A stretch of DNA of 63,641 bases, filler included, from Octopus bimaculoides (taxonomy: Eukaryota), in assembly GCF_001194135.2 (NCBI RefSeq). It is 5 parts of 5 records of this genome, joined end to end, with 100 filler letters (N's around TTAATTAATTAA, not from the genome) between each part and the next. Parts side by side here need not be neighbours in the genome. Positions count along the whole stretch, not along the records: positions 1 to 20,602 come from NC_069000.1; positions 20,703 to 48,252 come from NC_069008.1; positions 48,353 to 58,291 come from NC_068982.1; 2 more parts are not named here. One strand, 5' to 3'. The translations under genes and the position numbers were made by a program. Of this stretch, positions 3,273 to 56,118 are shown piece by piece. The notes under the pieces are model-generated. The model did no database searches and was not told the origin of the DNA. It saw nothing but the letters and a program-made list of their open reading frames with translations. The number at the start of each line of letters is the position of its first letter. The first letter of the stretch is position 1.

Positions 3273-3312
3273 GGCGACTCGAGTTTCAGGGCGATTTCCC
3301 TTCGTCATGGCC
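3273..3312 (-). ncRNA. Minimal type I hammerhead ribozyme motif with a 1-nt insertion in the core
   Basis: Minus strand reads GGC-C[A]UGACGA-AGGG aaaucg CCCU-GAAA-CUCGAG-UC-GCC: stem I 3 bp, stem II 4 bp, palindromic stem III ACUCGAGU, GUC triplet. Confidence 0.7.
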
Positions 3313-4844
3313 GGTATGACAGTCTTTGAATGGTTACACATGCATATATAAATTAAAATATCATATGAAGTCTGTTCAATAAACATGTACTTAGTTTTAG
3401 TGAGAAAATATAGCCCGTTCAGAAAACCTTCAGGGGTTGAGACCGTCCAGCTCGTTCCTCTTTTTCATACGCTTGTACAGGTATGCATTCTTTATCCCTC
3501 TGTCTGTTTCCCCTTCTCTGTCTCTTTCTATGTGTTTGTCTATCTGTCTGTTCATCCGTCTGTATGCCTGTCTGTCTATCTGTCTCTCTCTCTCTCTCTC
3601 TCGCGCGCGCACACACATATACAGTGCTAGACCTAACAACTGGTCAACTTGTCAGCTGGTGAACAACATTCTTAGATATACAAACAACGTAATCTCTGTG
3701 TGGTTATTCGATCTACCTGAAATGTCAACCAAACCGCATTCAGACCATACTCCACTTTTCGAAAGTACTTATTAGTTAATGTATTTCAGGTTACATTCTT
3801 CATGAAACGAAAAGACGGCATGATTATGGCTTGAGTGCATTTGATCAGAGTCTGTTCGGTCAGTGTTAACATGAGATAAAACATTAACAATACTATTTGA
3901 GAAAACGAAACGGAAACCCACAATAGAATAAATGACATTAAATTGTGCTAAACATTATTGTAGTGAGGTTGTAAAAATGTTTAATGAGAAACCACAATGT
4001 ATACAGAAACAGAACACAGAAAAACAAAACCAGATAAAATTCATCCGGTTCAACGTATTCATTAATGTGAACGAAGCAGCTAACACACCTAGAAACATCA
4101 TAGTGTTGATAAAAAGGCACTTTCCCCACCAACCACAAATTCCACCAGCGGTTTTACAAACACGCAGTAAAAATGAATCACGCTCAGTGAAAATATCGCA
4201 TCACTGATAACAACCGTAAGAATTAGTGGAAGGAATTACATTAATGCAACTTTAGAAACACTAATTACCCAATGAAGGTCCTTGTGCATTGTGCCACGGT
4301 GTCATTCATAGATGTGAAGAACTCTTCTCTATTTACAGATACTACGTTGAATCACCTGGCATCTCCACCCCAACTTTCTTCAGAGTCAACAAAAAAGAAT
4401 TTTTATGTCAATATCCAAATACATTTCGAAGTAAAAAGTGAAGGGAATTTAAAGCGCAGTAACCTGTTATGTGGCAGAGGAAACTGCACCTCACTAGGCA
4501 AACATATGTAAAGATATTTGTTCTGTCAGGTCGTGAAATTCTTTTAAAAGATGATTATGAAGTTTATTGAGATATTGAACAAGTGATGTGATTTGATGTT
4601 AAAGTGTAAAAAATAAGAGAAGACCTGCTCTAAATTTATTTACAATGATGTCCAGAATAATACACGAGGTGTTACAAACCCGATACTACTATATCCATCT
4701 CGGTCAAAATTATAATCGTAATTTCCATCAAGCTGAGACAGTGACTGCCATCTGACGCCCTGACATCTAAGACAAAAACAGGATAGAATCCTACATGCAG
4801 CAAGAAATTCAGTTACAAAATGTAGATAGCTTTCTTTTATCCTT

Positions 4845-5050
4845 TTGTCTCTTACTTGCAGCATTTGGACTGCAGCCATATTAAGGCATTGCCTTGAAGG
4901 GTTTAATCGAACAAATTGACCCCAGTATTTATTTTTGAAGTCTGGAACATATTCTATCATTTTCTTTGGCCAAATCGCTAACTTTTGGCGATGTAAACAG
5001 ATCAACACCGATTGTCAATCAGTGTGGGGGAGCGGAGAGGACAAACACAA
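4845..5050 (-). mobile_element. SINE family A, diverged 3' half
   Basis: Resembles the 3' half of the complete copy at 23289-23684. Confidence 0.75.
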
Positions 5051-5067
5051 ACACACACACACACACA

Positions 5068-5133
5068 TACGATCGGATGCTGAAAAGTTCCTGGTTTTAA
5101 GGGTTTCGCGAAAGTCCTGGTTGGAGGCTCAAC
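5068..5133 (+). mobile_element. Mariner-derived MITE, 5' fragment
   Basis: TA-CGATCGGATGCTGAAAAGTTCCTGG matches the ends of the copies at 33930-34075 and 34603-34757. Confidence 0.7.
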
Positions 5134-5176
5134 ATTTATACATGCAATACCTCCAATCATTCTATGTAGTAGTACA

Positions 5177-6070
5177 CCATATTTTTTGGGTCCCTTCTTG
5201 GTTTTATTTAGATTATATTTTGTTATTTGTTCTAAATTGCTATTATTATATATCCCCATATTTTTGGTTTTATTTAAATTATATTTTGTTATTTGTTCTA
5301 AATTGCTATTATTATATATCCCCATATTTTTGGTTTTATTTAAATTATATTTTGTTATTTGTTCTAAATTGCTATTATTATATATCNNNNNNNNNNNNNN
5401 NNNNNNNNNNNNNNNNNNNNNNNNNNNNNNNNNNNNNNNNNNNNNNNNNNNNNNNNNNNNNNNNNNNNNNNNNNNNNNNNNNNNNNNNNNNNNNNNNNNN
5501 NNNNNNNNNNNNNNNNNNNNNNNNNNNNNNNNNNNNNNNNNNNNNNNNNNNNNNNNNNNNNNNNNNNNNNNNNNNNNNNNNNNNNNNNNNNNNNNNNNNN
5601 NNNNNNNNNNNNNNNNNNNNNNNNNNNNNNNNNNNNNNNNNNNNNNNNNNNNNNNNNNNNNNNNNNNNNNNNNNNNNNNNNNNNNNNNNNNNNNNNNNNN
5701 NNNNNNNNNNNNNNNNNNNNNNNNNNNNNNNNNNNNNNNNNNNNNNNNNNNNNNNNNNNNNNNNNNNNNNNNNNNNNNNNNNNNNNNNNNNNNNNNNNNN
5801 NNNNNNNNNNNNNNNNNNNNNNNNNNNNNNNNNNNNNNNNNNNNNNNNNNNNNNNNNNNNNNNNNNNNNNNNNNNNNNNNNNNNNNNNNNNNNNNNNTTA
5901 TTTAAATTATATTTTGTTATTTGTTCTAAATTGCTATTATTATATATCCCCATATTTTTGGTTTTATTTAAATTATATTTTGTTATTTGTTCTAAATTGC
6001 TATTATTATATATCCCCATATTTTTGGTTTTATTTAAATTATATTTTGTTATTTGTTCTAAATTGCTATT
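5177..6070. repeat. 66-bp AT-rich minisatellite spanning a gap
   Basis: Unit CCCCATATTTTTGGTTTTATTTAAATTATATTTTGTTATTTGTTCTAAATTGCTATTATTATATAT; about 3 copies on each side of the 510-N gap. Confidence 0.95.
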
Positions 6071-53530: not shown

Positions 53531-53979
53531 AATCTAGGGCATTTATAACTGCCTCTCCTAAATAAGTCTCAAAACCTCAGGAAAGTACCCCGTATTGGTC
53601 TTCGAAACGTCTAGATAGAATAGAGACAGCTGATGAAGGGATATTCCAAGGGGCTTTCCGTTTTCCTATGTGTTCGTTCCGTTGTCTGTAGTTTATTGTT
53701 CTAACGTCCTGTACCCTGATATGCATGTATATACACATGTAGATGTAAGTATGTACATATATGTGTGTATACATGTATATATATTCTTTGTATTATATAT
53801 ATATATATATATATACACACATGTATACGTATCCATATACATATGGACACTCATACACACATACATGTAAAAGCACTTAGACACACACACACAGAACAGA
53901 ACTGAGTATTTGTTGAGATTAAGAATGAGAATTAAAACGTTCCTTAGTGATTAAAATGTTTTTCTTTTTCTTATATTTT

Positions 53980-54200
53980 TTTTTTTACTTGTTTCAGTCA
54001 TTTGACTGTGGTCATGCTCGTACACCGCATTGAAGGGTTATAGTCGAACAAATCGACACGGAGGCGTTATTTTTTGTAACCTGGTACTTATGCTATTGGT
54101 CGCTTTTACTGAACTGCTAATTTACGGGGACGTAAATCCACTAACACCGGTTTCAAGCGGTGATGAGGAGCAAACACAGACACAAAGAAACACACATACA
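53980..54200 (-). mobile_element. SINE family A, 3' half
   Basis: Tail hairpin CAGTC AAAT GACTG. Confidence 0.8.
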
Positions 54201-54269
54201 CACATACGTATATATCTTTTATTCTCAAGTTTTTTATTATTCTTTCTCTGCTTATTTCCTCGTGTTCCT

Positions 54270-54415
54270 TTCTGTTGCCCCTGGTACTTATTCTTCGTAA
54301 GCCTTGCACTTATTCTATCGGTCTCTTTTTCCGATTTGCTAAGTTACGGGGACGCAAACACATCAGCGTCGGTTGTCAAGCGATGTTGGGGAGACAAACA
54401 CAGACAAAAAAAAAA
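54270..54415 (-). mobile_element. SINE family A body fragment
   Basis: CTTATTCTTCGTAAGCC..GCGATGTTGGGGAGACAAAC. Confidence 0.8.
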
Positions 54416-56073
54416 CATATACGCACACATACATACGTACATATGTATATATATATATATATATATATATATATATATATNNNNNNNNNNNNNNNNNNNN
54501 NNNNNNNNNNNNNNNNNNNNNNNNNNNNNNNNNNNNNNNNNNNNNNNNNNNNNNNNNNNNNNNNNNNNNNNNNNNNNNNNNNNNNNNNNNNNNNNNNNNN
54601 NNNNNNNNNNNNNNNNNNNNNNNNNNNNNNNNNNNNNNNNNNNNNNNNNNNNNNNNNNNNNNNNNNNNNNNNNNNNNNNNNNNNNNNNNNNNNNNNNNNN
54701 NNNNNNNNNNNNNNNNNNNNNNNNNNNNNNNNNNNNNNNNNNNNNNNNNNNNNNNNNNNNNNNNNNNNNNNNNNNNNNNNNNNNNNNNNNNNNNNNNNNN
54801 NNNNNNNNNNNNNNNNNNNNNNNNNNNNNNNNNNNNNNNNNNNNNNNNNNNNNNNNNNNNNNNNNNNNNNNNNNNNNNNNNNNNNNNNNNNNNNNNNNNN
54901 NNNNNNNNNNNNNNNNNNNNNNNNNNNNNNNNNNNNNNNNNNNNNNNNNNNNNNNNNNNNNNNNNNNNNNNNNNNNNNNNNNNNNNNNNNNNNNNNNNNN
55001 NNNNNNNNNNNNNNNNNNNNNNNNNNNNNNNNNNNNNNNNNNNNNNNNNNNNNNNNNNNNNNNNNNNNNNNNNNNNNNNNNNNNNNNNNNNNNNNNNNNN
55101 NNNNNNNNNNNNNNNNNNNNNNNNNNNNNNNNNNNNNNNNNNNNNNNNNNNNNNNNNNNNNNNNNNNNNNNNNNNNNNNNNNNNNNNNNNNNNNNNNNNN
55201 NNNNNNNNNNNNNNNNNNNNNNNNNNNNNNNNNNNNNNNNNNNNNNNNNNNNNNNNNNNNNNNNNNNNGTGTGTGTGTGTGTGTGTGTGTGTGTGTGTGT
55301 GTGTGTGTGTGTGTGTGTGCATGCGTGCGTAGTGAAAATTACGATCAAAATTTTGTAAATCTTGTTTTTACTTCCAGATCAACAGATATTCTCTAGATAA
55401 CATACCGTGGCAATAACCTGTTTGCATATTTCATTAATATGTATGCATTTATTTGTTTGCTTTAATAGAATAGAGAACGCGAGGAACTATGAAACTCAGT
55501 TTTCTTAAGAGTAACTGAAACATGTGAGGCAATGAAACAGTTCCAAATCGTAATTAAAATCGTATCCAGATTTACTTCAAAACATTCTACAACAAAGGCC
55601 TTTATATAAAGAATTTTTTTACACTGATGCAATATCTCAGACACGAAGAGAAAACCATATAAAGTTTAATGTTTCAGTTAAGTCTACTACAAGACAAATA
55701 AAAAATTATTTACTTTTTTTTCATCGAAAACTTGACATCCGGTTTGAGAATGGCTATAAACGGGGATTGAAACCAATTTGAAATAATGATTGTTGTTGAT
55801 ATTATTTTAAATCGGTTTCCATTTGTTGTGATTGTTTCGCATCATATCAGCCATGATCGACTAGATATATAACTATACTAAAGGCTTTCTAGTCATTGTC
55901 ATGCTTATTTTTATTTTTCCTTTTCAATATTAGATAGTTTAGATACAACAGCATGGGGTGGATGTTACTGTTGCTTTTAGCCCCAGGAGGACATCTCTTC
56001 CAGCTGGCTTATCGACACACGACTGTGTCCTGTTTGCCAAGGGAAGTTATCCCTCTCACCAACATCTGCAGCA

Positions 56074-56118
56074 CGAACGGATCCGGATTTCAGGGTTATT
56101 TCCCTTCGTCGGCGTTCG
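56074..56118 (-). ncRNA. Minimal hammerhead motif (U4C variant)
   Basis: CGAACG-CCGACGA-AGGG aaauaa CCCU-GAAA-UCCGGA-UC-CGUUCG: perfect 6-bp stem I, palindromic stem III AUCCGGAU, AUC triplet. Confidence 0.82.

Follow-up and report, generated by a model that had tools for sequence, protein, structure and literature searches.

A predicted hammerhead ribozyme of likely undescribed wiring at the probable Naiad-type 3' end of an abundant octopus repeat

The window analysed here, a stretch of 63,641 nucleotides joined from five parts of the Octopus bimaculoides genome (NCBI RefSeq assembly GCF_001194135.2) along which all positions are counted, carries at 60588-60698 (+) a near-intact copy of a rearranged hammerhead motif whose core is split between A9 and G10.1. 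This motif is probably a hammerhead of likely undescribed wiring, predicted to self-cleave at what is probably a Naiad-type 3' end, and the dimer-type minimal hammerheads flagged in an initial annotation of the same window are mostly damaged and likely relics of truncated Penelope-like elements (PLEs). The evidence consists of the letters of the motif and its six possible helices, the abundance and variant pattern of its family, and the recurrence of its layout in published Naiad consensus sequences. A wider proposition also appears reasonably likely, namely that Naiads of ctenophores, cnidarians, acanthocephalans, nematodes, arthropods and cephalopods carry non-circularly permuted hammerheads active as monomers, including a wiring opened between A9 and G10.1 with a helix junction, and that this genome holds an abundant, transcribed family of them. 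The split wiring is likely new as a variant of the hammerhead, the flagged minimal motifs being already known.

A split-core hammerhead motif and its host element

Every letter of the hammerhead core (CUGANGA, GAAA, U16.1-H17) is kept at 60588-60698, in the order cleavage site (U16.1 at 60644, H17 at 60645), GAAA (60661-64) and CUGAUGA (60688-94), hereafter S-G-C, with a predicted cut at 60645/60646. Around this core, stem I (60646-50:60683-87, 5 bp), stem II (60622-27:60655-60, 6 bp, closing pair G60622-C60660) and stem III (60641-44:60664-67, 4 bp) are able to pair, with the G10.1-C11.1 and A15.1-U16.1 pairs in place. Three further helices can form on the same strand: P4 (60628-37:60672-81, 8/10 pairs with two U-U mismatches), P5 (60588-91:60695-98) and the P6 hairpin (60592-60621). 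In the best-supported fold, A9 is linked to G10.1 neither directly nor through one or two nucleotides; G10.1 is nucleotide 60622, lying upstream, and the strand that follows A9 pairs upstream as P5, beside P6. P5, P6, P4 and stem III nest in this model, in which stems I and II are pseudoknots.

All six block orders were scanned with exact cores in the window and in 200 shuffles. At 3/3/3 bp four hits were obtained, at 38728 (type I), at 60688 and 53630 (S-G-C), and as a long-range alternative for 53630. At 4/4/4 bp 60688 alone remains, and the S-G-C order appears in 0/200 shuffles. A descriptor of the split layout, composed after the motif was seen, likewise retrieves only 60688 at 4/4/4, versus 0/300 shuffles. 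A decayed relative occupies 53581-53641 (+; H17 at 53594, GAAA at 53604-07, CUGAUGA at 53630-36), and a sensitive self-comparison links 53599-53640 to 60656-60698 (E 3e-4), GAAA being upstream of CUGAUGA in both. This relative is missing the upstream P4 strand, its stems I and III are 3 bp each, and it fits the split descriptor only at 3/3/3, as do 12/300 shuffles, so that alone it is not significant. A type II reading of 53600/60660 was set aside, since no stem I hairpin is available. Both rearranged motifs (53594-53641 and 60588-60698) had been overlooked in the initial annotation.

The host element of the 60588-60698 motif spans 59932-60857 (+) and is organised as a partial tandem resembling a pseudo-long terminal repeat (pLTR), 59932-60077 being a truncated direct copy of the element's 3' end (88% over 156 columns). 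Its body is non-coding and pyrimidine-rich, no open reading frame (ORF) is recognisable within it, and its 3' end runs into (TA)n. The copies at 53630 and 60688 both end in (TA)n, 182 nt past the predicted cut.

A comparison of the window with Rfam gave nothing at gathering score, and hammerheads are absent among the 150 listed of 283 weak matches and likewise in 60450-60800. Metagenome scans for the rearranged pattern returned 19 loci, none with a stem III of at least 3 bp next to the core. Five of these loci (L001:3960-4140, minus strand, L002, L007, L009 and L019) are near-identical, GC-rich and non-coding, and present UH, GAAA and CUGAUGA in S-G-C order with a stem I of 6 bp and, beside the core, a stem III of only 2 bp; neither L001 nor L002 matched Rfam.

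Family variants and transcription

Reads over 60560-60800 were compared in three RNA runs (about 6% of each; 594-882 reads) and one DNA contig run. All four runs cover every core block of 60588-60698 at similar depth, and the motif belongs to an abundant, transcribed family. Summed contig depth reaches 1.0-1.5 million across the motif, single contigs giving 36-165, a depth that is not a copy number. RNA reads in this interval fall equally on both strands.

The variant table for 60560-60800 lists 40 of 52 rows, 25 of them inside 60588-60699. Among the rows listed, no variant touches CUGAUGA, GAAA or U16.1, and the sole change at H17 replaces A by C, in 65-85% of RNA reads. Pairing was assessed for 17/25 of these variants; the remaining eight comprise the one at H17, two in loops, three in linkers and two at 60699. 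Fifteen of the variants assessed fall in modelled helices, and 14/15 keep or create pairing. Five putative compensatory pairs change on both sides: 60627/60655 in stem II, 60597/60616 and 60598/60615 in P6, 60651/60682, which extends stem I, and 60588/60698 in P5. In addition, variants 60675 and 60676 mend the U-U mismatches of P4. The clearest pair is 60627/60655, whose members reach 60-77% and 55-78% of RNA reads and co-occur in one loose-end group; this pair supports the helix 60622-27:60655-60.

Recurrence of the layout in Naiads

According to Craig 2021 (PMC8557442), canonical hammerheads are lacking in Naiads, 18 of which were marked as having core or half-core boxes matching none of the descriptors; File S1 of that paper marks eight Naiads as half-core and nine as core. 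Excerpts of 37/54 consensus sequences in its File S5 were surveyed, boxes and pair counts being judged by eye throughout. The split layout was recognised in 10/37 of the sequences viewed: Bfor from a ctenophore, -3_Chem, Amil, Aacu, Anas and -2_Movir from cnidarians, Plae from an acanthocephalan, Obim and Ovul from octopus, and one sequence in part 19, tentatively EuTe from a crustacean given the file order, the motif not lying within the last 600 letters of EuTe. Amil, Aacu and Anas are near-identical, as are Obim and Ovul, so that the ten amount to about seven independent cases. Helix lengths across these seven range over 2-6 bp for stem I, 4-6 bp for stem II, 5-12 bp for stem III and 5-15 bp for P4. 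The break at A9 is flanked by P5 and P6 in each of them other than Bfor, whose P5 falls outside the excerpt, and in Obim P5 pairs imperfectly. All ten have A or C as H17, and the letters of the stems differ while the order of the blocks is the same. Esco is partial, GAAA being missing.

Two contiguous arrangements were found in other Naiads, the CSG order in seven (Parc, three Nbra, Hcon, Hpol and Smim) and the SGC order in two (Lpol, and Sdum with U3-A8). CSG, SGC and the split form can be described as openings of one circle of blocks that runs in the reverse of the order of types I-III. In the excerpts viewed, the 3' ends of Naiad-1_Chem, -2_Chem, CGi and -1_Skow display no hammerhead boxes and have in common another conserved motif of structured appearance.

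The window copy resembles the Naiads of PMC8557442 in its (TA)n-adjacent 3' end, its partial tandem and its 3' RNA layout, and has stem I letters and core context in common with Naiad_Obim and Naiad_Ovul. It differs from Naiad_Obim in stems II and III and in P4-P6, and by the lack of an ORF. Because its stems depart from those of Naiad_Obim and no ORF is present, the window element would be another Naiad family or a non-coding derivative. A (TA)n insertion site and a pLTR-like partial tandem also occur in other PLE clades and are not diagnostic; the element is probably Naiad-type on account of its RNA layout and of the shared stem I letters, not of protein.

Comparison with described hammerheads and a proposed mechanism

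Eckert 2023 (PMC10085705) described non-circular permutations from metatranscriptomes and metagenomes, with a single GCS candidate from the genome of a known organism, and took the CUGAnGA block as uninterrupted and indivisible. Both CSG and SGC orders cleave in vitro (PMC10085705). The window motif resembles type-SGC and type-CSG in its core letters, in the cyclic order of the cleavage-site, GAAA and CUGAnGA blocks, in the short linker between the strands of stems I and II, and in a helix tying these two stems. It differs from them in its location within an abundant animal repeat, and in the 5' strand of stem II, which is detached from A9, P5 and P6 taking that place. As in type-SGC, the blocks follow the order S, G, C and a helix (P4) links stems I and II, its strands being different from those of the published helix. 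A stem II built from the strand directly after CUGAnGA is weak in the window copy and absent from its Naiad relatives. In all its other sequence features 60588-60698 conforms to a hammerhead, but because A9 is not contiguous with G10.1 it is best filed under none of types I-III, SGC, CSG or GCS. No description of such a split hammerhead was found in the literature, most subscription journals and the supplements of PMC10085705 being outside the search.

In the mechanism that we propose, stem II would pair the strand just upstream of GAAA with a strand 5' of the cleavage site, and stems I and III would clamp the UH site, so that stems I-III would assemble a normal core. P4 would bridge these two stems, I and II, at their distal ends, standing in for the stem I-II contact, and P5 and P6 would form a junction replacing the A9-G10.1 link. 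PLE hammerheads are known to tolerate an extra nucleotide at the A9/G10.1 position (PMC4209133). Unlike that of the dimer type, stem III (4-12 bp in the examples) would be long enough for cutting as a monomer and, with such a full stem III, no dimer would be needed. The cut would free the RNA of the element from read-through transcripts, and P5, stem II, P4 and stem III could hold both products together; more speculatively, products retained in this way could favour re-joining or template switching.

If true, a natural form opened between A9 and G10.1 would represent an added hammerhead topology that is missed by current descriptors and by Rfam, environmental contigs having hitherto been the only source of non-circular permutations. 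From the absence of hammerheads reported for Naiads it has been suggested that these ribozymes may be dispensable passengers of PLEs; conserved and covarying Naiad ribozymes, if confirmed, would argue against dispensability. Naiads would moreover offer monomers on which to test what cleavage does, free of the dimer problem.

Weighing the alternatives

Several observations weigh against a functional split hammerhead at 60588-60698. Among the variants listed, 60684 G>A, present in 14-24% of RNA reads, disrupts stem I and has no partner, those at 60600 and 60601 would break inner pairs of P6, and 60698 G>A reaches 54% of DNA depth versus 8% for its partner 60588 C>T, the fourth pair of P5 being often mismatched; all variants are unphased. 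No pile-up of read ends occurs at 60645/6 in the three RNA runs, at about 6% of each read, which makes for a weak test. Stem I and P6 persist in the nested minimum-energy fold computed for the window copy, but stems II and III, P4 and P5 do not (pseudoknots are unscorable in it); the window copy may misfold, as this fold departs from our model. A frequent change, 60671 A>T, would destabilise the competing hairpin of the nested fold. Among the Naiads, 13/37 of the ends viewed have no boxes in the part seen and four are unclear, with pairs counted by eye on excerpts. Finally, the Naiad ORF (N-terminal GIY-YIG, CxC linker, reverse transcriptase) was not found in the window, which leaves no protein link to the clade.

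Under the main rival, the reverse transcriptase of the element would recognise the rearranged motif as a folded, non-catalytic tail whose boxes are structural or vestigial. Such a tail would accommodate an interrupted A9-G10.1 link, seen in no described hammerhead, as well as the missing read-end pile-up, and hammerhead cleavage was found dispensable for the insertion of Poseidon in vitro (Frangieh 2024, PMC11167929). It is nonetheless unlikely: a full core including the UH rule, H being A or C in the ten split examples, is kept over about five phyla while the stem letters change, and sister Naiads have CSG or SGC forms with a contiguous core, one of them with the known U3-A8 covariation. Another possibility is that 60588-60698 is an ordinary type-SGC hammerhead, its stem II being supplied by the strand immediately downstream of A9 and the upstream helix acting as an inhibitory switch. 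After one extra nucleotide, 60696-60700 can indeed pair with 60656-60660 (5 bp, two of them G-U), a pairing that 60698 G>A strengthens. At -1.9 kcal/mol this downstream duplex is nevertheless weak, the upstream strand giving -4.7 kcal/mol, and 60699 varies to A or T, which breaks it. Among the remaining split examples, the strand following A9 contributes 2 bp to such a stem II in Obim and Ovul and none elsewhere, and it pairs upstream as P5; we regard an ordinary type-SGC arrangement as the least probable of the readings weighed. The split hammerhead opened between A9 and G10.1 thus remains our preferred reading of the motif.

The flagged minimal hammerheads are likely relics of truncated PLEs

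All eight stretches flagged as minimal hammerheads were located at their positions. Using a type I descriptor that requires a self-complementary stem III and stems of at least 3 bp, with 40 block-wise dinucleotide shuffles as controls, one exact-core locus was found in the window (38728-38697, minus strand) versus none in each shuffle. Tolerating a single core change raised the count to four loci (38693, 40513, 51227 and 56074); the shuffles then averaged 0.45, none exceeded 2, and 0/40 reached four. The flagged set thus exceeds chance, and the shuffle comparison that had been advanced as a possible refutation instead bears it out. The claim that all follow the CUGANGA, GAAA, UH order holds fully for 1/8 (38693), the others showing U4C, U4A, G12A, or short or missing stems. 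The six palindromes listed for stem III are all present, ACGUGU requiring G-U pairs. About six groups is a fair estimate of their diversity; calling these families unrelated was too strong, as 3273 and 56074 have 21/23 nt in common.

Seven of the eight copies are damaged. Only 38693 retains an intact core and full stems, with the type I order, exact core and short palindromic stem III of the minimal hammerhead ribozymes (min-HHRs) of metazoan PLEs; an exact core with paired stems I and II is found in none of the other seven. This intact copy lies at 38652-38822 (minus strand, core 38728-38697), within which the 46 nt after the predicted cut are repeated in inverted orientation, the arm terminating exactly at the predicted cut site. 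Such a coincidence, seen once, may be a trace left by cleavage in vivo. The idea that inversion breakpoints record cleavage in general was rejected: they are exact at 38693 only, one independent case, are trivial for 51227 and 56074, where the arm is stem I, and fail at 39789/40337, where the fixed end is about 44 nt upstream of C3.

The latter pair belongs to one insertion, an inverted pLTR-like pair at 39734-40462 with arms at 39734-39899 (minus) and 40298-40462 (plus) that are 84% alike over 166 nt in self-comparison, with a damaged hammerhead in each. The core at 39789 is exact, but stem I is 1 bp and the stem II region 51 nt; the core at 40337 has the change G12A. In other copies of this family, 6 of the 15 joints listed, from a longer set with 41 others, connect opposite strands, a constant end at 40293-40299 being linked to a second end somewhere in 39905-40012. 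Next to it, an abundant repeat (40470-40612, +) contains a sequence of minimal hammerhead shape (40517-40544) whose core is CAGAUGA (U4A), the majority of its family having CUGUUGA (A6U). The possibility that splicing rebuilds this core, an acceptor AG replacing UG, was discarded: T stands at 40518 in 83% of DNA depth and 89-95% of RNA reads, and about 90% T at 40520 yields the family CUGUUGA. This family is very abundant, and its A6U majority is either a dead ribozyme that was amplified or an unreported functional variant. Between 404 and 708 RNA reads per run carry a different 5' sequence joined at 40533, which suggests a single strongly expressed deleted copy. A metagenome scan for the 40513 family gave 0 loci.

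Two minus-strand copies share the core CCGACGA (U4C), one at 51190-51301 (51260-51231, within an inverted repeat of 41-53 nt) and the other at 56047-56147 (56112-56080, with an extended, imperfect stem I). CCGACGA occurs three times (51260, 56112 and 39907, all on the minus strand), always within a hammerhead-associated element. U4C and A6C are known as weak hammerhead variants (Perreault 2011). The damaged copy at 3270-3312 (minus) is kin to 56074: its C3 is changed or interrupted, the adjacent stem I is 1 bp, and its stem III differs at 4/8 letters yet is palindromic. At 37652-37696 (+), a remnant displays CUGAUGA, stem II and GAAA, with neither stem III nor UH. A further hammerhead-like remnant, heavily decayed, is possible at 3410-3455 (+).

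These flagged motifs are likely decayed 3' ends of truncated PLEs bearing dimer-type minimal hammerheads, and the Penelope-like link and dimer-type design proposed in the initial annotation are in agreement with the inverted arms, the (TA)n tracts and the predicted co-folds. A (TA)4+ run lies at most 260 nt downstream of 8/9 motifs tested (6/7 flagged, both rearranged) versus 399/2000 random places, and dimer co-folds of 3273, 51227 and 56074 are predicted to pair stem III between molecules. These same three resemble Hydra-clade PLE hammerhead rows in File S2 of Craig (PMC8557442). In published genomes, minimal motifs number thousands per genome, in many families and mainly as single motifs of truncated PLEs, and opposite-strand hammerhead pairs are spaced 100-700 bp (Cervera and de la Pena 2014, PMC4209133). 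The flagged motifs match this situation, published in 2014, and are ordinary by themselves: they are alike in type I order, short palindromic stem III, multiplicity of families, single truncated copies and opposite-strand pairs. They differ from PLE min-HHRs in that a core letter or a stem is gone from most of the copies in the window, in the U4C of two copies and in A6U as the majority of one family. Non-LTR retrozymes (bioRxiv 10.64898/2026.07.22.740005) are similarly non-coding, hammerhead-bearing and PLE-related; they are defined by tandem units each with a hammerhead, and the window motifs are in no such array.

According to the initial annotation, the window would hold a population of probably non-autonomous, active ribozyme-bearing retroelements whose intronic copies could cut host pre-mRNA, which now seems very doubtful. 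Several distinct motif families do occur within 64 kb, the two families tested are abundant and present in RNA, and neither a six-frame reading nor Pfam revealed PLE ORF remnants adjoining the flagged motifs. Because no such remnant was found, truncated and non-autonomous origins are not fully separable. Yet the damage affects 7/8 copies, no tandem array of hammerhead motifs exists in the window, the inverted-arm anatomy is that of truncated PLEs, the pair at 39789/40337 behaving like a 5'-truncated PLE insertion, and for Octopus a PLE that is autonomous and bears a hammerhead has already been listed. The cleavage of host pre-mRNA fares no better, since no host exon was recognised among the 486 ORFs of at least 45 aa in the window, single min-HHRs showed no cleavage in vitro, dimers cleaving at a low level (PMC4209133), and no read-end pile-up is visible in 39905-40612, which includes 40337 and 40513. 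An RNA-holder listing over 38500-41200 contains no confirmed entry, a result with no bearing on expression.

Other features of the window

The window contains 11,137 N and consists of animal DNA rich in microsatellites. The sole Pfam match above cut-off among the 486 ORFs is RVT_1 at 51386-51961, with no match to GIY-YIG or to a PLE reverse transcriptase, and no tRNA genes are present in the window. This match belongs to a remnant of a reverse transcriptase of the long interspersed nuclear element (LINE) type at 51386-52500 (+; RVT_1, E 2.6e-11), and a weaker reverse transcriptase fragment lies at 17256-17393. Dispersed short repeats of the size of short interspersed nuclear elements (SINEs) are scattered over 7185-57540, for example at 12237-12512, 23285-23686, 26121-26343 and 47284-47623.

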